Position numbers and translations under genes: made by a program
The notes under the pieces: model-generated
What the model was told of the DNA's origin: nothing
The model's input: the letters and a program-made list of their open reading frames with translations, nothing else
Databases searched by the model: none
Origin: a virus
Taxonomy: Duplodnaviria; Heunggongvirae; Uroviricota; Caudoviricetes
Length of the DNA stretch: 13,042 nucleotides
IMG/VR virus record: IMGVR_UViG_2698536506_000001
Location: 1 to 13,042 of that record
Direction: 5' to 3' (one strand)
Shown here: in pieces, positions 1 through 13,042 of the stretch
How positions within the stretch are numbered: position 1 is the stretch's first letter
Layout of the letters: every line of letters starts with the position of its first letter

Positions 1-1
1 G

Positions 2-316
2 GTTTCTTTTAAAGGTTATTACGGTGATCTGGCCATCATGGTGGCGAAAACAACGTATGTTGATGAAAACGGGGATGAGCAGCGTTATCTGCCGGAAGGC
101 ACACTGATTCTTGGAAACACTCAGGTGGAGGGTGTCCGTTGTTATGGCGCAATCCAGGATAACCAGGCGCTGAGTGAAGGGATCACCTCTGCAATTCGTT
201 ATCCGAAACACTGGCTGGAGGTGGGTGATCCTGGTTGCGAATATACCATGACGCAGTCTGCGCCGTTGATGGTGTTGCCGGATCCTGACGCGTTTGTGGT
301 GGTTCAGGTGAAATAA
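2..316 (+). CDS. Major capsid protein, lambda gpE family (C-terminal fragment; 5' end is upstream of the window)
   Basis: Frame is open from position 2 to TAA at 314-316; the track ORF 38..316 is only the first in-frame ATG. Translation ...KGYYGDLAIMVAKTTYVDENGDEQRYLPEGTLILGNTQVEGVRCYGAIQD...IRYPKHWLEVGDPGCEYTMTQSAPLMVLPDPDAFVVVQVK aligns closely with the lambda gpE C-terminus as I recall it (...LGNTQARGLRTYGCIQD...ARYPKNW...FTMIQSAPLMLLADPDEFVSVQLA). Recalled homology, not searched. Confidence 0.8.
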   Translation, partial: VSFKGYYGDLAIMVAKTTYVDENGDEQRYLPEGTLILGNTQVEGVRCYGAIQDNQALSEGITSAIRYPKHWLEVGDPGCEYTMTQSAPLMVLPDPDAFVVVQVK

Positions 317-320
317 GGTC

Positions 321-346
321 AGGCGGGATATTCCCGCCTTTTTCTT
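321..346 (+). terminator. Rho-independent terminator-like hairpin plus T-tract downstream of the capsid gene
   Basis: AGGCGGG (321-327), loop atatt, CCCGCCT (333-339) is a perfect 7-bp GC-rich stem, followed by TTTTTCTTT. Seen directly in the sequence. Confidence 0.55.
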
Positions 347-366
347 TATCGCACGGGAGAGATGTG

Positions 367-732
367 ATGACAAAAGAGCAGATGACGGAACGCCTTCAGG
401 CGCTGGCAGTGATTCTGGGGCGTGAAGCAGATATTTCAGGTTCAAAGGCCGATCTTGAGCAGCGCCTGGCGGAATGGGAAGAGGAGGCCGCCGGATTCGA
501 TGGGGAGGATACCGGGGCGGAAGAGGTGGACAACGATGCATCCGGCGACGGGATGCATTCTGAGCGGGGACTCGTCCGGGTGCGCATGCTGAAAACAGCG
601 CATATGCCAGCCTGTGATGCTGTGACGGGAAAAATGTTGATGTTCGCCCGGGCCTCCAGTGTTGTGCTGGTTAATGAAGCCGCAGTTCCTGCGTTGCTGG
701 CGGACGGTCTGGCAGAAAAAATCCGGGAGTGA
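367..732 (+). CDS. Head DNA-packaging / head-completion protein, lambda FI-like
   Basis: ATG at 367 sits 6 nt after GGGAGA (355-360); GTG at 364 is an alternative start. Position is immediately after the capsid gene, as in lambda. N-terminus MTKEQMTERLQALAVILGRE...GSKADLEQRLAEWEEE resembles recalled lambda FI (MTKDELIARLRSLGEQL...GTKEELALRVAELKEE). Acidic middle region. Confidence 0.6.
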   Translation: MTKEQMTERLQALAVILGREADISGSKADLEQRLAEWEEEAAGFDGEDTGAEEVDNDASGDGMHSERGLVRVRMLKTAHMPACDAVTGKMLMFARASSVVLVNEAAVPALLADGLAEKIRE

Positions 733-1136
733 TGATGTCCGATAATCTGTTCGATCAGGCCATGAGTGATGCGGATGACATCATCCTGGATACGATGGGG
801 ACGGAAATCAGCATATATCCGGGCGGCACGGAAAGAAAAATCCGTGCTGTTTTTGATGCCCCGGCAGATAACACCGGGATGAACACTGGCAGCGGCGAAA
901 TTCGTGATACTGCACCGGTGTTATTTACCCGGAGCGCATGGGTTGCCGGACTGAAAAAATATGACAGGGTCATGATCCACGGCGAACCCTACCAGGTGGT
1001 CGATCCTGGCTGGGATGAGTCAGGCACTGCGGGTCATGGTGTGATTACCATTACTCTTGCGCGGGGAGAACCCGGAAGAAGTACACCCGCCGCCCCTGTC
1101 CGACCGAGTAAACGTTATGACAGTCAGAGAGCATGA
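732..1136 (+). CDS. Head-tail joining protein, lambda FII-like
   Basis: Start ATG 732 overlaps the upstream stop (TGATG); ATG 735 is an alternative. Translation MMSDNLFDQAMSDADDIILDTMGTEISI...IRAVFDAP...PVLFTRS...IHGEPYQVVDPGWDESG follows the pattern of recalled lambda FII (MADFDNLFDAAIARADETIRGYMGTSATI...IRGVFDDP...PSLFVRT...IGEENFWVDRVSPDDGG). Confidence 0.65.
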   Translation: MMSDNLFDQAMSDADDIILDTMGTEISIYPGGTERKIRAVFDAPADNTGMNTGSGEIRDTAPVLFTRSAWVAGLKKYDRVMIHGEPYQVVDPGWDESGTAGHGVITITLARGEPGRSTPAAPVRPSKRYDSQRA

Positions 1137-1839
1137 ACGAAGCACTGTCCGGCAGCGACGGCTGGCACGAAACCTCGTCGTCGATATTGACGAGGATGAT
1201 GTGCTGAAAATTATCGCTAAACTGGGTGGTTCAAAAAGCCAGATCCGTAAAGCCTGGGGCGTGGCGCTGAAAAGAGCCGCGTCCGCACTGCGGATGAAGG
1301 CCATGGCAGAGTTTAAAAAACAGGTTGCGCCACGCAGCCAGAAAATGATCAAAAAACGTGTCCTGAATGCTTTTATCATTCGTCGAAATGGCGATGAGTT
1401 TGATGAGGCAAAGGTGTGGTTTGGCCTGAACGCCATCAAAGTACGTGATTTGCGCGGACGCATCAGTGGGGGACGACGCGGCGAACGCCATCAGTTGCGC
1501 GATGAACGGGGGCGTTTTGCACCGGCTTCCCGCCGCAGGAAAGTGCCGGAGATTCGTTTTAAACCTGCCGGGGAGGCAATACCGGTCACAACCTGGTCAG
1601 GTGAAGAGGCTTTTGTTAATGAGTTTGAGTCTGAAAACCGGCGCGGACGCATTTCACGACGTAAGACGGTACTGGTCAGGCAGGCATCCGGACGACGACG
1701 GGTGCGCGAAGCGGAAATTGATATTTATGAAGCCATGCTGAACCGTATAGAGGATTTTGTTTTCCCTGATGCGGAAGCACTGATCCTGAAAAATTTTGAG
1801 CATGAACTGAAATTCCGGGTATTTAAGGGGATGGAGTGA
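1117..1839 (+). CDS. Hypothetical arginine-rich virion/connector-region protein (about 240 aa); function unassigned
   Basis: Long ORF in the co-directional operon. The track start 1057 is a TTG; the first ATG is 1117 (MTVREHERS...), overlapping the FII-like gene by 20 nt. Contains two Arg-rich blocks sharing an RGRIS motif. Occupies the slot of lambda Z (after FII), but I cannot confirm homology by eye. Confidence 0.5.
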   Translation: MTVREHERSTVRQRRLARNLVVDIDEDDVLKIIAKLGGSKSQIRKAWGVALKRAASALRMKAMAEFKKQVAPRSQKMIKKRVLNAFIIRRNGDEFDEAKVWFGLNAIKVRDLRGRISGGRRGERHQLRDERGRFAPASRRRKVPEIRFKPAGEAIPVTTWSGEEAFVNEFESENRRGRISRRKTVLVRQASGRRRVREAEIDIYEAMLNRIEDFVFPDAEALILKNFEHELKFRVFKGME

Positions 1840-2402
1840 TGGAACCATTGATGATGGGAACCTGGCATCAGGCAGTGATTGACAGTCTGAAACAAATTCC
1901 CTGGGTGGAAGATGCCGATGAGTACCCGGAAAAAGTGACGCAACTGGTGACGCCTGCCGTGTTTGTGGATGTACCCGGATGGGACAAGGCTCAGTTTGCC
2001 GACGGGCAGACACGGGTCACGCTGAAATGCGATCTGTTTGTGGTGACAGACCGGGCCGGGAAGACGGAAAACGTGCCAAAACCGCAGATTTTTGCCCGCT
2101 GTCTGGCGATGGATTTATCTGACTGGATTGATGGAGCCACGTTCGGGCTGGATAACGTTGACCCGGCTGTTTTTATCGATGCTGAGGTGGATACCTTCGA
2201 CCGGCTGCTGGACGACTACATCGTTTTCCGTGTTTCTTTTGAACAGGACATTCCGGTCGGCGAAGATCCGTTTGCGGCTCCGGCAGGTGTGCCGTTACAG
2301 GAAGTCTGGCTGAGTAAAGTACCGGAAACCGGTAAAAAGCATGTGCAGGATTATCGTCTTATCTGGAAAGCGGAGGGCACCGGCGATGAGTCTGGCGGAT
2401 GA
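1839..2402 (+). CDS. Hypothetical protein (about 187 aa), candidate tail-completion / tail-terminator or neck protein by position
   Basis: ATG 1839 overlaps the upstream stop (GTGATG; GTG 1836 is an alternative). Lies between the lambda-type head-completion genes and baseplate gene V, the slot taken by lambda U or P2 R/S. Only weak, unconvincing resemblance to lambda gpU by eye. Confidence 0.5.
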   Translation: MEPLMMGTWHQAVIDSLKQIPWVEDADEYPEKVTQLVTPAVFVDVPGWDKAQFADGQTRVTLKCDLFVVTDRAGKTENVPKPQIFARCLAMDLSDWIDGATFGLDNVDPAVFIDAEVDTFDRLLDDYIVFRVSFEQDIPVGEDPFAAPAGVPLQEVWLSKVPETGKKHVQDYRLIWKAEGTGDESGG

Positions 2403-4866: not shown

Positions 4867-6240
4867 GTGGGTATGCATGGACTAGTTTTGACAACAGCCG
4901 GGGCAGCCGAAATTGAAGCTGCATATCATGCCGGTGAGGTGGTGACCATCAGTCAGGTGATGATTGGTGACGGGGGCGGGAAAACACTGCCCTCAACGCC
5001 GGATGAGATGGCGGCGATGGTCATGTTGTGTGGTGAGTTTGGTCGGGAGCCCTTTTCAGGCGGTGTGGTGGACGAAGGTTTTATCAGCGGAGATATTGTC
5101 ATTGACTGTCAGTCATACCCGGGTAAGACCCTGCGTGAGCTGGGCATGGTGAGTCATCGTGGTACGCTGATTGCGTATGGTCGTTATCCGGATACGTATT
5201 TACCGGCACAGACGGATTCCGTTATCAAGGAGGTGATACTGACACTGGTTCTTGCTCTTACACATACACAGAGTGTGACGCTGGAGGTGGATCCTCACAG
5301 GGCGATTATCACGCAGGAGGCCGGAGATAAACGCTATCTGCGCATCGGCGAGAATCTTGCCGATGTGGAAGATAAAGATGAAGCGGTTGATAACCTCGGA
5401 TTAAAACCTACGGTGGATAAAGCGAAAAATGCCGTTCAGCGTGATGGTGACACCATGACCGGGGAGCTGAAAATTGGCACGGTGAATGCGCTGCGAATTT
5501 TCGACGATGCTTTTGGCCTGATTTTTCGTCGTTCGGAAGAATATCTTCATTTTATCCCGACGTCTGAAGGACGGGGCGAAAACGGTGATATCGGCCCATT
5601 AAGGCCATTTGCTATAAATCTGAGAACAGGCGCTATATCAGTCAGCCACGGTGCAAAAATTGATGGTGGGCTGGCGCTTGGTACGAATAACGCATTGGGT
5701 GGTAATTCTATTACTCTCGGTGATAACGATACAGGTATAAAACAAAACGGCGACGGCATTCTGGATGTTTATGCTAATAATCAGCGCGTATTTCGCTTTC
5801 AGAATGGAGTTGCTATTGCTTTTAAAAACGTTCAGGCCGGGGATAGTAAAAAATTCACGCTATCCAGCTCCAACAGCTCCACGAAGAACGTAGGGTTTAA
5901 TTTATGGGGTAATCCATCCAGACCTGTAGTTGCAGAACTTGGTGATGATTCCGGCTGGCATTTCTACAGTCAGAGAAATACAGACGATAGCGTCACATTC
6001 GCTGTAAATGGGCAGATAACTCCATCAAACTACGGAAACTTTGATGCCCGCTATCAGACCAAAACAGGCGGCGTGCAGGATGTACGTCTGGGAAGCGCCA
6101 TTGGTATTGGACGCGGGGGAAATGCGCCATCAGGTCATTTACTGAGTGGTGTTGATGGCGGTGAAAGTGTGAACTGGGCCAATGCACGCCCGGTGCAGGT
6201 TCTGATTAATGGCGTCTGGAGAAATGTAGCGAGTTTGTAA
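4867..6240 (+). CDS. H: Tail fibre protein H (receptor-binding)
   Basis: GTG 4867 (or ATG 4873) starts 4-10 nt after the I stop. N-terminus ...LVLTTAGAAEIEAA...IGDGGGKTLP resembles recalled P2 gpH (...TVITTAGAAKLAAA...VGDGGGKLPVP). C-terminal about 230 aa (ALGGNSITLGDNDTGIKQNGDGILDVYANNQRVFRFQNGVAIAFKNVQAGDSKKF...NLWG...RPVVAELGDDSGWHFYSQRNTD) matches the conserved fibre C-terminal domain shared by P2 H, Mu S and related fibres. Confidence 0.85.
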   Translation: MGMHGLVLTTAGAAEIEAAYHAGEVVTISQVMIGDGGGKTLPSTPDEMAAMVMLCGEFGREPFSGGVVDEGFISGDIVIDCQSYPGKTLRELGMVSHRGTLIAYGRYPDTYLPAQTDSVIKEVILTLVLALTHTQSVTLEVDPHRAIITQEAGDKRYLRIGENLADVEDKDEAVDNLGLKPTVDKAKNAVQRDGDTMTGELKIGTVNALRIFDDAFGLIFRRSEEYLHFIPTSEGRGENGDIGPLRPFAINLRTGAISVSHGAKIDGGLALGTNNALGGNSITLGDNDTGIKQNGDGILDVYANNQRVFRFQNGVAIAFKNVQAGDSKKFTLSSSNSSTKNVGFNLWGNPSRPVVAELGDDSGWHFYSQRNTDDSVTFAVNGQITPSNYGNFDARYQTKTGGVQDVRLGSAIGIGRGGNAPSGHLLSGVDGGESVNWANARPVQVLINGVWRNVASL

Positions 6241-6242
6241 TC

Positions 6243-6788
6243 ATGATGCACTTAAAAAATATTACGGTACAAAACCCTAAAACAATTGAGCAATACCAGC
6301 TGGCGCGACAGCATAAATTTTTATTGTGGCTGTTCTCAGATGATGGACAGGAATGGCACGAAGCCCAGGAAAAATTTCTACCAGACACCCTGAAAGTTAT
6401 TTATGTTAAAACTGGCGAAGTGGTCTGGGTCGGAAAAGACATCACCTCAATCTGCCCGGAAAATAAAAGCGTGATTGAGTTGCCGGATATTACCGCTAAT
6501 CGTCGCATTGAAGCATCAGGCTACTGGTTTTACCGCAATGATGAATTTGTTTTCGACTACAAACTTAAAGCGGAAGACGAGCGTGATGCCCTGTTAAAAC
6601 AGGTCAGTATCATGACCAGCGAATGGGAAAAAGACCTGCTGCTGGGATTAATCAGCGACGAAGACAGGGAAAAGCTGAAAGCGTACCGCATTTACGCGAA
6701 ATCGTTGCAGGCGATGGATTTCAGTGCCATCAACGATAAAACCTCATATAACGCCATTGAGTGGCCAGTACCTCCACAAAACACCTGA
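6243..6788 (+). CDS. G: Tail fibre assembly chaperone (P2 gpG / Tfa family)
   Basis: ATG 6243 lies 2 nt after the H stop. MMHLKNITVQNPKTIEQYQLARQ...LWLFSDDGQEWHEA...ELPDITANRR resembles recalled P2 gpG (MQHLKNIKSGNPKTKEQYQL...LWSEDGKNWYEE...EVPDITSNRR). 181 aa. Confidence 0.85.
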   Translation: MMHLKNITVQNPKTIEQYQLARQHKFLLWLFSDDGQEWHEAQEKFLPDTLKVIYVKTGEVVWVGKDITSICPENKSVIELPDITANRRIEASGYWFYRNDEFVFDYKLKAEDERDALLKQVSIMTSEWEKDLLLGLISDEDREKLKAYRIYAKSLQAMDFSAINDKTSYNAIEWPVPPQNT

Positions 6789-8894: not shown

Positions 8895-9197
8895 ATGCCA
8901 GAGATAAACAGTATTCCCTGCAGCAGCGTGGAGATTGTGTTATCCGTGCCGTATGTCACTGCGTCAGGTCAGACAATCTCGCATGTCACCATGCGTGCAC
9001 CCACCGTCCGCGATCGTCTGTTACATCGCCGGAGTACCAAGCCGGAAGCAGAAGCCGATCTGGATATGATAGCCGGCCTGTGCGGAATGGATGCGGCGGA
9101 CATGATGAATATGGAAGCGTGTGATTACCTGTCCCTGGAGCGGCAGTTTAATGTTTTTTTGCTGCCGCCGGTCAGGCGGAAGAAGACAGCATCCTGA
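8895..9197 (+). CDS. E: Tail assembly chaperone E (zero-frame product)
   Basis: ATG 8895 with AAGAGGAAA upstream. 100 aa. Sits between the tube and tape-measure genes and carries a slippery heptamer near its 3' end. Confidence 0.7.
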   Translation: MPEINSIPCSSVEIVLSVPYVTASGQTISHVTMRAPTVRDRLLHRRSTKPEAEADLDMIAGLCGMDAADMMNMEACDYLSLERQFNVFLLPPVRRKKTAS

Positions 9198-9334
9198 CAG
9201 CGATACGGCGCGCCGGTGCCTGGTTCGGGTGGTCTCCCGGAGATGTGATGGCACTGCCGTATGCAGATTTTGTGTCAATGATGCTGGAGGAATCGGAAGA
9301 GAGGCGGCGACGTTATGGCAACGGTGGGCGATAA
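8895..9334 (+). CDS. E': Tail assembly chaperone E+E' (-1 frameshift fusion product, about 146 aa)
   Basis: After a -1 slip at 9155-9161 the frame reads FFAAAGQAEEDSILTAIRRAGAWFGWSPGDVMALPYADFVSMMLEESEERRRRYGNGGR then stop, overlapping the tape-measure start by 20 nt. Same arrangement as P2 E/E'. Inferred, not experimentally shown. Confidence 0.55.
9155..9161 (+). promoter_or_regulatory. Candidate -1 programmed ribosomal frameshift site (slippery heptamer T TTT TTG)
   Basis: Zero-frame codons GTT TTT TTG (9153-9161) give the heptamer T_TTT_TTG. The -1 frame is open from here to TAA at 9332-9334. Confidence 0.6.
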
Positions 9335-11461: not shown

Positions 11462-11654
11462 CGGCGATATGCTGGATGATATCTGTCAGAGACACTACGG
11501 CAGCGCCGGACTCAACCAGTCACTGGCGGCGGTACTGGAGGCTAATCCCGGGCTGGCTGATCTTGGTCCGGTGTATCCGTCCGGGGTGGAAATCGTGTTA
11601 CCGGACTGGACATATGAGCCGGAAGAGAAGGAGACGTTTCAGTTATGGGACTGA
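11436..11654 (+). CDS. X: Tail protein X (small LysM-like)
   Basis: 72 aa. ...DGDMLDDICQRHYG...AVLEANPGLADLGPVYPSGVEIVLPD resembles recalled P2 gpX (...QGDTLDAICVRYYG...VLAANPGLAELGAVLPHGTAVELPD). Confidence 0.7.
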   Translation: MAKNWRTTDGDMLDDICQRHYGSAGLNQSLAAVLEANPGLADLGPVYPSGVEIVLPDWTYEPEEKETFQLWD

Positions 11655-12721
11655 ATGAATATCAGCCGGATTTCAGTCTGACGGTGGAAGGCGAGGATAT
11701 CACGAAAGCAATAAAACGCGGACTGGCTGAACTGCGTTATACCGATAATGGTGCTGCCACAAAGCGGGCTGATGAGTTAATGATAACGCTGTTCAGTGAA
11801 ACGCTGGCATTGCCACCGAAAGGCGCAGTATTAACGCTGGGGCTGGGGTTTAACGGACGTCTGGTGAATAAGGGTAGCTTTACTGTCTGTCAGGTGGCAA
11901 GCGGTGGCCCTCCCCGCCGGATCACCATTTATGCCACAGCAGCCCCCATGAATGCGTCCAGGCATGGTGCAGATGTGACTGCACTGAAAACCCGCGCCTT
12001 CAGCGATGTCACGCTGGGTGACCTGGTAAAAACGATCGCCACTGAAAATAATCTGGTGGCGCGGGTATCTCCGGTACTGGAGGAAATTCGTATTCCGTGG
12101 GTGATGCAGTCATCTGAGTCGGATGCGTCCCTGCTTTCCCGGCTTGCAGGGATGTACGGTGCCACCAGTAAACCGACGAACGGTTACTGGTTATTTCTGG
12201 AGTATGGTGCGTCGCAGAGTACCGGAGGCAGGGATGCCCCAGTGATGACCATCACACCGGATATGGTGTCAGACTGGGATTACCGGGAGGGCGATCGGCA
12301 GGGGGCATCTGGAGGCGGAAAAGGGGGAAAGGTTGGTGTCAGGTACTTTACTCCGTCTGATGGTCGCACGCGTGAACTTAAAGTGGATGTGGAGTCCACA
12401 GACAAGCGGCATCCCTTCACCCAGCCAGACCAGAGCACGGCAGAACATTGTGCACAGTCGAAGGTAAAGCGGGTGCAGAAAGCGGGGCGTCAGATGACGA
12501 TAACGCTGCCCTGCCGACCGGTATTGCTGAAAGCGGGGGCGGAAGTGCGCTTTATCACACGGGGCTTCGGGGTACGGGAGGACCATAACTGGCAGGCAGA
12601 GTCAGTGGAATTTTCGTTGTCACCGGGGCAGGGATTTTCGCTGAATCTGTCGCTGGCCACGGATATTTCTGCAAAGGGGAAAGCCAGTGGCAAGAAAAAA
12701 GGCGTCAATTATTTTGGTTAA
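11645..12721 (+). CDS. D: Tail protein D (late control gene D family)
   Basis: ATG 11645 overlaps the X 3' end. 358 aa against 387 for P2 gpD. Terminal gene of the tail module. Confidence 0.8.
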   Translation: MGLNEYQPDFSLTVEGEDITKAIKRGLAELRYTDNGAATKRADELMITLFSETLALPPKGAVLTLGLGFNGRLVNKGSFTVCQVASGGPPRRITIYATAAPMNASRHGADVTALKTRAFSDVTLGDLVKTIATENNLVARVSPVLEEIRIPWVMQSSESDASLLSRLAGMYGATSKPTNGYWLFLEYGASQSTGGRDAPVMTITPDMVSDWDYREGDRQGASGGGKGGKVGVRYFTPSDGRTRELKVDVESTDKRHPFTQPDQSTAEHCAQSKVKRVQKAGRQMTITLPCRPVLLKAGAEVRFITRGFGVREDHNWQAESVEFSLSPGQGFSLNLSLATDISAKGKASGKKKGVNYFG

Positions 12722-12745
12722 TGTTTTCTGAATCAGGAAATAAAA

Positions 12746-13042
12746 ATGTCTGTATTAATTTCGGGTGTGCTGACGGATGGCGCGGGACTCCCCATGTCCG
12801 GATACCATATTATTCTGAAAGCCAGACAGAATACATCCGTAGTGGTCATGAGAACGGTGGCGACAGTGGTGACAGGTCCGGCAGGAGAATATGCTTTTGA
12901 AGCTCAGACCGGAAAATATGACGTTTATCTTCGGTCGTGTATTGAAAGGGAATACTGTGTCGGTAATATTTCGGTTTACCACGATTCAACGCCCGGCACG
13001 CTGAATGATTTTCTGACAGCCATCGATGAAGGCGACCTCAAG
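12746..13042 (+). CDS. stf: Side tail fibre protein, lambda Stf-like N-terminal domain (5' partial; continues beyond the window)
   Basis: ATG 12746, 8 nt after AGGAAA. Open for 99 codons to the window edge, so not in the supplied track. Translation MSVLISGVLTDGAGLPMSGYHIILKARQNTSVVVMRTV...GEYAFEAQTGKYDVYL...GNISVYHDSTPGTLNDFLTAIDEGD aligns with the recalled lambda Stf N-terminus (MAVKISGVLKDGTGKPVQNCTIQLKARRNSTTVVVNTV...GRYSMDVEYGQYSVIL...GTITVYEDSQPGTLNDFLCAMTEDD). Confidence 0.7.
   Translation, partial: MSVLISGVLTDGAGLPMSGYHIILKARQNTSVVVMRTVATVVTGPAGEYAFEAQTGKYDVYLRSCIEREYCVGNISVYHDSTPGTLNDFLTAIDEGDLK

Follow-up and report, generated by a model that had tools for sequence, protein, structure and literature searches.

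The open reading frame that runs off the right-hand end of the window (the whole stretch of 13,042 nucleotides analysed here) appears to be the 5′ end of an intact, late accessory gene for a trimeric receptor-binding fibre that is most likely attached to the neck of the virion; we favour this reading tentatively, giving it close to an even chance. It builds on the observed identity of the N-terminal domain, the completeness of the gene in near-identical genomes, its chaperone partner, its conservation, the purifying selection acting on it and the exchange of its tip. According to the proposed mechanism, the gene would be transcribed together with the P2-ordered tail operon, its product would trimerise and be incorporated into virions, the collar domain would fix the fibre to a virion ring, and the resulting head-proximal neck fibres could add a second specificity beside that of the H fibres on the baseplate. 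The features of the window that bear on this reading are the following.

729..1136, + strand: lambda gpFII-like head–tail connector (PF05354, E 2.1e-13; phrog_82, head closure Hc1)
1057..1839, + strand: Neck1/tail-completion-type protein (phrog_27, E 1.4e-26)
1836..2402, + strand: conserved protein between the neck genes and V (phrog_1072, E 8.7e-51)
4867..6240, + strand: gpH-type baseplate fibre, the first fibre class (PF12571 tail-collar N-terminus, E 1.3e-16)
6243..6788, + strand: gpG/Tfa-type chaperone of the H fibre (PF02413, E 1e-21; 94% identity to phiP27 L55)
11645..12721, + strand: gpD-type baseplate hub gene, closing the P2-ordered tail module immediately 5′ of the fibre gene
12735..12738, + strand: Shine–Dalgarno sequence AGGA, 7 nt 5′ of the fibre ATG, read from the sequence
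12746..13042, + strand: accessory fibre gene, first 99 codons, encoding the StfN ‘collar’ anchor; the gene is cut at the window edge

The fibre ATG occupies positions 12746-12748, 24 nt beyond the gpD stop codon (TAA, 12719-12721), and the frame stays open through 99 codons up to base 13042. The gene upstream is assigned to the gpD type by phrog_52 (E 3.8e-92), its match to PF05954 being weak (25.2 bits, under the cut-off of 30.1). The 99 residues align with positions 1-99 of the 134 in the PF08400 model (phage_tail_N) at E 8.8e-41 and 139.5 bits, where the gathering cut-off is 26.6 bits, and they also match several PHROG tail-fibre families (best E 7e-50). Judged by sequence, the Stf-type N-terminal domain is genuine, the match lying far beyond chance. 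The original prediction of an Stf-type fibre ORF immediately after gpD was thus correct in its coordinates as well as in its domain, and the profile search that it proposed for the N-terminal domain returned a significant result. An antisense ORF at 12755-12982 (75 aa, GTG start) was dismissed, as it lies inside this strongly supported + strand gene.

Several properties of the junction suggest that the fibre gene is a regular member of the late operon. In contig L012, a near-identical E. coli sequence described below, a scan of the interval from D to the fibre gene showed neither a promoter-like nor a + strand terminator-like site, the promoter and terminator counts did not exceed those of shuffled sequences, and there was no shift in GC content or composition at the D-to-fibre boundary. 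With its own Shine–Dalgarno sequence and no intervening promoter or terminator, the fibre gene would be co-transcribed with the P2-ordered late tail operon. Both the D-to-fibre spacer and the Shine–Dalgarno sequence are kept in diverged E. coli relatives (L003 and L005, ~85% DNA identity), and dN/dS for the 99 codons against relatives is 0.11-0.26, indicating purifying selection on the anchor domain.

The remainder of the gene was recovered from E. coli genomes. An exact look-up of the gpD protein found many E. coli assemblies. Each of the 10 contigs returned has the same gene order: gpD, a PF08400 protein of 474 aa, a DUF4376 protein of 187-192 aa, and host genes after these. Contigs L012 and L010 differ from the window by one and two mismatches, respectively, in 11.4 kb, and contig L017 by one mismatch in 7.1 kb. 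All three carry an intact fibre gene of 474 aa, and residues 1-99 of the L012 protein are identical to the 99 residues of the window; an early stop or frameshift, which had been raised as a possible failing of the prediction, was looked for in these near-identical contigs and the gene proved whole. A full-length relative scores 185.6 bits on PF08400 over positions 1-133. In a BLASTP comparison with lambda orf-401, the N-terminal part of Stf, the 474-aa protein shows 43% identity over residues 1-123 (E 3e-27) and no similarity past residue ~123. The description of the gene as lambda Stf-type therefore holds for the anchor (residues 1-123), but not for the shaft and tip.

An AF2 model combined with alignments divides the full-length protein into three parts. 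Residues 1-94 are predicted to form a beta-sandwich, the Ig-like collar anchor, which is followed in the model by a short linker of low confidence; residues ~100-228 form long helices, a predicted coiled-coil shaft; and residues ~260-474 form a mixed alpha/beta C-terminal domain that is predicted to bind the receptor. Between the helices and the C-terminal domain lies a conserved motif, ...EEAQQESRDNLGLK..., with the DNLGLK junction. A PDB fold search with the C-terminal domain found no significant match among solved structures, and this domain is unrelated to the C-terminus of the window's H fibre, with which it has only the DNLGLK junction motif in common; the comparison with known fibres that had been suggested thus gave no solved counterpart for the tip. 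A Pfam search showed that the PF12571 tail-collar domain is absent from the fibre ORF and from its full-length relative, an NCBIfam search gave no matches, and viral contigs searched for exact copies of the final 61 nt of the window likewise gave 0 matches.

The gene that follows the fibre gene encodes its probable partner. DUF4376 (PF14301) is found on this 191-aa protein, which lies outside the window, at E 1.2e-16 and 61.5 bits (cut-off 25), and in contig L012 its gene starts 8 nt past the fibre stop codon. It has no match among PDB sequences. Proteins with this domain have been linked to fibre maturation elsewhere: gp27 of Alteromonas phage V22 is an experimentally supported tail-fibre chaperone (PMC7289586), and DUF4376 chaperones are listed for phage A5 (PMC10579305). 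By analogy, the DUF4376 partner may mature the fibre described here, and it would then represent a chaperone class different from lambda Tfa and P2 G. No tfa-type (PF02413) gene was found downstream of the fibre in any relative inspected, and none of these relatives contained an invertase or an inverted fibre segment; a host-range switch by inversion was dismissed on these grounds. It had been proposed that the downstream sequence be examined for a tfa-like chaperone or an invertase: in the near-identical contigs a chaperone does follow, but it is of the DUF4376 kind rather than tfa-like, and there is no invertase.

In contig L012 the prophage ends with the fibre/DUF4376 pair, next to which come tRNA-Ser(UGA) and the hya operon. 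In E. coli CFIAFB20190172 (L003, 9347-11246), the fibre gene is separated from the integrase at the prophage end by a reverse-transcriptase gene and a SLATT-domain gene; these two may be defence cargo, possibly retron-like.

The tail genes of the window run in the order V W J I H G FI FII E(+E′) T U X D, which is the order of P2. For all but two of them the Pfam or PHROG match is of the kind expected from this order: the tape measure is recognised by PHROG matches alone, and D has a strong PHROG match with a Pfam match under the cut-off. The sheath gene matches PF04984/PF17482. The module contains a fibre (H) and a chaperone (G) of its own, as had been anticipated, identified by their PF12571 and PF02413 matches; relatives of H are annotated from the position equivalent to 4873. 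The P2-type setting assumed for the fibre gene is correct for the tail, but the head and neck are lambda-type: the left end of the window encodes the C-terminus of capsid protein E, FI, an FII homologue and the Neck1-type protein. The gpFII-like protein matches gpFII itself (PDB 1K0H; phmmer E 1.4e-7), the true start of the Neck1-type gene is probably later than 1057, since its relatives are annotated as 240 aa, and the phrog_1072 protein is also kept in phages yong2 and Chris1. The whole phage can be seen in E. coli ETEC1732, where a complete relative integrated at ompW carries lambda-type terminase, portal, protease, D, E, FI and FII genes and continues into the P2-ordered tail and then the fibre pair. 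The combination of a lambda-type head and neck with a P2-ordered tail identifies a lambda-head/P2-tail hybrid rather than a phage that is P2-like as a whole.

Two further observations concern this architecture. Window positions 1-2234 are lambda-type, and a mosaic joint relative to E. coli PapRG-04-4 (L001, 1-5760) lies at ~2235, inside the gene 5′ of V; the tail module of the PapRG-04-4 relative is 98-100% identical to that of the window, FI, FII, the Neck1-like gene and most of the phrog_1072 gene are missing from it, and a different capsid gene (44% identity) stands beside RepA-helicase and SSB genes, with no portal or large terminase within the 15 kb shown. The head region of the PapRG-04-4 relative is mosaic or degenerate. 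Separately, the gpE-type tail assembly chaperone gene (8895-9197, PF10109) contains an in-frame T TTT TTG at 9155-9161, and from there the −1 frame is open to a TAA at 9332-9334, overlapping the tape-measure start at 9315. We take the arrangement at 8895-9334 to resemble the programmed −1 frameshift of P2 E/E+E′.

Of 5426 complete E. coli genomes, 86 (~1.6%) contain the D-to-fibre junction, in prophages located at ompW, dusA, prfC and other sites. At 90% identity the fibre falls into a cluster of 368 sequences annotated ‘prophage tail fiber N-terminal domain-containing protein’, and fibre lengths of 474, 608 and 664 aa are found behind a near-constant N-terminus. The D-plus-fibre region gave no megablast match among isolated phages, so at this level of identity the arrangement is known only from prophages. 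The nearest kin of the 99 residues among isolated phages are phiP27, Rac-SA53 and a Rac-SA53-like phage, whose anchors are about 75% identical and whose tail modules are of the baseplate-J type, with a sheath annotated in phiP27. Identity to the Stf of lambdoid siphophages is only 46-50%, and the anchor domain would, by these comparisons, belong to a subfamily of baseplate-bearing phages. By gpD (48-50%) the nearest isolated phages are Hafnia phage yong2 and Citrobacter phage Chris1, both of which are without the fibre pair.

The tip of the fibre also occurs on a different anchor. A 415-aa protein, P0052, combines a gpH-type PF12571 N-terminus with the same tip (~97% identical from residue ~205), joined just 5′ of the DNLGLK motif and followed by a DUF4376 gene. 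P0052 belongs to assembly GCA_012340135.1, where the same tip is found on a PF08400 anchor in a window-like prophage (L017) and on a PF12571 anchor in a different one (L021), with a DUF4376 gene next to each. The presence of one tip on both anchors indicates that a tip-plus-chaperone cassette moves between anchor types. A tblastn search of all window proteins against phiP27 and against the tail region of Rac-SA53 found only distal H, G, the fibre and the DUF4376 protein in common. Thus, only host-recognition genes are common to the window phage and phiP27, pointing to module exchange across unrelated tail types. The distal part of the window's H shows 62-75% identity to phiP27 L54 (L006, 38636-40185 region), and G shows 94% to L55.

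Fibre copies are disrupted in two of the five complete-genome relatives inspected (strains C5 and Sx181-0-1), which implies that a prophage, at least, can do without the fibre. In E. coli C5 (L002, NZ_CP010122.1, 9102-10367) only 211 aa remain of the fibre linked to D, and its gene faces a convergent, truncated PF08400 gene of an inverted Rac-SA53-like prophage; it looks as if the two prophages had undergone a deletion or rearrangement within these genes.

The position of the fibre on the virion was approached through the fold of its anchor. In the 2025 structure of Ur-lambda, Stf residues 1-94 form a ‘collar domain’, of which 12 copies encircle the tube where its last gpV hexamer meets gpM, bearing four trimeric fibres between them (PMC12617516). 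In a contractile tail, this docking surface would be covered by the sheath and the baseplate wedges. When an AF2 model of the 99 residues (pLDDT 79) was compared with the PDB using Foldseek, two structures and no others reached E <= 0.001: the lambda collar domain (9E7M, TM 0.81) and the N-terminal domain of gp40 from Vibrio myophage XM1 (7KJK, TM 0.76). The solved Stf collar fold, a beta sheet followed by a short helix, is accordingly modelled in the N-terminal domain of the fibre, and the Ig-like N-terminal domain of XM1 gp40 and the coiled coil that comes after it have their predicted equivalents there too. Sequence similarity to gp40 is marginal (phmmer E 8.7e-5 with the full-length fibre; gp40 scores 18.5 bits on PF08400, under the cut-off of 26.6). 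XM1 is contractile, and six gp40 trimers are bound to its neck through their N-terminal domains, where they touch connector gp4 and terminator gp5 (PMC10457771). For cyanophage A-1(L), the published report describes a neck pentadecamer carrying five fibres (PMC10966104). The solved proteins with the collar fold are listed below by phage type, location and score.

Lambda Stf, siphophage, distal tail collar: 13.7
XM1 collar spike gp40, myophage, neck: 13.0
A-1(L) neck fibre gp82N, myophage, neck: 9.9
Bxb1 tail collar fibre gp4, siphophage, tail collar: 9.1
Bxb1 tail collar spacer gp6, siphophage, tail collar: 9.0

The fold is therefore found on the distal tail in the solved siphophages, lambda and Bxb1, and on the neck in the two solved myophages, and a PDB search found no solved contractile-tailed virion that carries it on the baseplate. 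Neck attachment is preferred because the lambda site would be buried and because both solved contractile phages carry the fold on the neck; by analogy with these virions, and with moderate confidence, the second fibre would more likely sit at the neck than on the tail. In the window phage the gpFII-like protein (729..1136) is a candidate docking ring for the collar domain and the Neck1-type protein (1057..1839) a candidate neck component. Sequence and PHROG comparisons found no neck or baseplate protein common to the window phage, phiP27, Rac-SA53 and XM1, and the neck-protein PHROG families of these four phages are all different. No conserved docking partner was identified from sequence, despite the 70-75% anchor identity in the window phage, phiP27 and Rac-SA53, and protein-by-protein comparison with ETEC1732, PapRG-04-4, yong2 and Chris1 gave identities that did not set the neck apart from the baseplate.

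A possible, if somewhat doubtful, alternative, and the one implied by the original prediction, is that the fibre is mounted on the distal tail or baseplate beside the gpH fibres, such that the contractile tail would engage two receptors at the cell surface. The collar fold does occupy the distal tail in lambda and Bxb1, but the site used in lambda, the outer surface of the junction between tube and gpM (PMC12617516), would be covered in a P2-type tail, and in the PDB search the fold was seen on the baseplate of no solved contractile virion, both examples being on the neck. Gene order is consistent with a baseplate location, as the fibre gene ends the tail operon and in phiP27 and Rac-SA53 comes directly after an H-type fibre and Tfa; however, no baseplate protein is common to the three tail types in spite of their 70-75% identical anchors. 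The occurrence of the same tip/DUF4376 cassette on a gpH-type PF12571 anchor suggests that the tip works at baseplate distance. Fibre length provides a further argument. Coiled coils rise by ~0.15 nm per residue, and by this rule of thumb the ~130-residue coiled coil would make a shaft of ~20 nm, while the 551-aa tape measure would correspond to a tail of roughly 80 nm. A neck fibre of this size would not reach the cell alongside the baseplate before contraction, and in this respect the baseplate, as the distal site, fits the short shaft better.

A more general proposal, quite possible though short of probable, is that the Stf collar is a portable anchor, which either docks at the neck in a widespread group of baseplate-bearing temperate E. 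coli phages, comprising those with P2-ordered tails and phiP27, or uses a site on a contractile baseplate that would be unprecedented. If true, one and the same tip could be displayed at the neck or at the baseplate, depending on the anchor with which it has recombined. Either way, the structural interest lies in how a collar that wraps the bare tube of lambda docks on a sheathed virion.

It is unlikely that the cassette is carried by the prophage without being built into the virion, as a spare module, a recombination reservoir or a captured remnant. Tip modules do move between prophages (GCA_012340135.1 holds one tip on two anchors), the C5 rearrangement appears to involve two prophages inside the fibre genes, disrupted copies exist, and the isolated phages closest by gpD, yong2 and Chris1, manage without the cassette. 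Against these observations, the anchor domain is under purifying selection (dN/dS 0.11-0.26), the start context is kept across relatives of ~85% identity, and the intact gene and its chaperone are present in every one of the ten contigs with an identical gpD; moreover, the identity of only 46-50% between this subfamily and lambdoid Stf argues against recent capture from a lambdoid phage. That the fibre gene of the source genome is a pseudogene, truncated or frameshifted beyond the window edge, is very improbable, for although only 99 codons are visible in the window and two of the five complete-genome relatives inspected have disrupted copies, the gene is intact at 474 aa in L012, L010 and L017 and the 99 residues are identical to those of L012.

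The preferred reading, an intact accessory fibre most likely borne on the neck, leaves a prophage with genes for two classes of fibre whose tips are unrelated, which makes dual specificity plausible. The original prediction had offered dual receptor specificity or a host-range switch as consequences of two fibre systems on one tail: two classes with unrelated tips are indeed encoded, but a switch finds no invertase to perform it, and the placement on the tail had been assumed, with the neck now appearing more likely. Hence a common family of E. coli prophages encodes two independent receptor-binding fibres with differing anchors and chaperone classes. Such two-fibre prophages bear on the prediction of host range and on the engineering of phage and tailocin specificity, and their importance is modest. 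Databases already contain the fibre gene with its family and annotation. The cassette, which is annotated in hundreds of genomes, belongs to the phiP27 L56/L57 family, itself known before, and sequenced phage genomes have included the ‘second fibre pair’ arrangement since the phiP27 record.

The comparison with named systems places the fibre more precisely. The anchor resembles that of lambda Stf/Tfa, whereas the shaft and tip of the window fibre are not Stf-like, the tip is not gp37-like, and the partner is a DUF4376 (PF14301) protein instead of Tfa (PF02413). The lambda collar surrounds a bare tube at the gpV/gpM junction, whereas the window phage is sheathed and the same docking site would not be available. 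XM1 gp40 (7KJK) is only 24% identical and falls below the Pfam cut-off; its tip is a tailspike, its gene is remote from the tail genes, and it has no noted DUF4376 partner. For XM1 attachment to the neck has been demonstrated, whereas for the window fibre it is inferred. Cyanophage A-1(L) gp82 (8KEG) and Bxb1 gp4/gp6 (9D93) have no detectable sequence similarity to the fibre, and their stoichiometries differ. In the case of V22 gp26/gp27 and of A5, the DUF4376 family partner is alike and the fibres themselves are unrelated. P2 gpH/gpG resembles the window fibre in being the receptor-binding fibre of a P2-ordered module and in its DNLGLK motif, and similar tips occur on gpH-type anchors; however, gpH/gpG is defined by PF12571 and PF02413, the second fibre is without both, and the window keeps an intact H/G pair in addition.

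The true family of the fibre pair consists of phiP27 L56/L57, Rac-SA53 tail3/tail4 and gp69/gp70 of ‘Actinobacillus’ phage pPE4. The L012 fibre and phiP27 L56 (NC_003356) are 51% identical over 474 aa (E 6e-134), with the first ~240 aa far more conserved, and the DUF4376 partner is 70% identical to L57 (E 5e-106) and 70-73% identical to the partners across this family. Tail types differ: phiP27 is an Stx2e-converting phage with an annotated sheath, Rac-SA53 is baseplate-bearing with a sheath not confirmed, and neither has a neck or baseplate protein in common with the window phage at E<1e-3. In the phages of this family the tail module is not P2-ordered and the pair comes directly after the first fibre and Tfa, whereas in the window phage the genes from the sheath to D separate the fibre pair from H-G. 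As in the window phage, the pair of phiP27, Rac-SA53 and pPE4 lies at the prophage end and is an additional one, each of these temperate phages having a first fibre with a Tfa-type chaperone.
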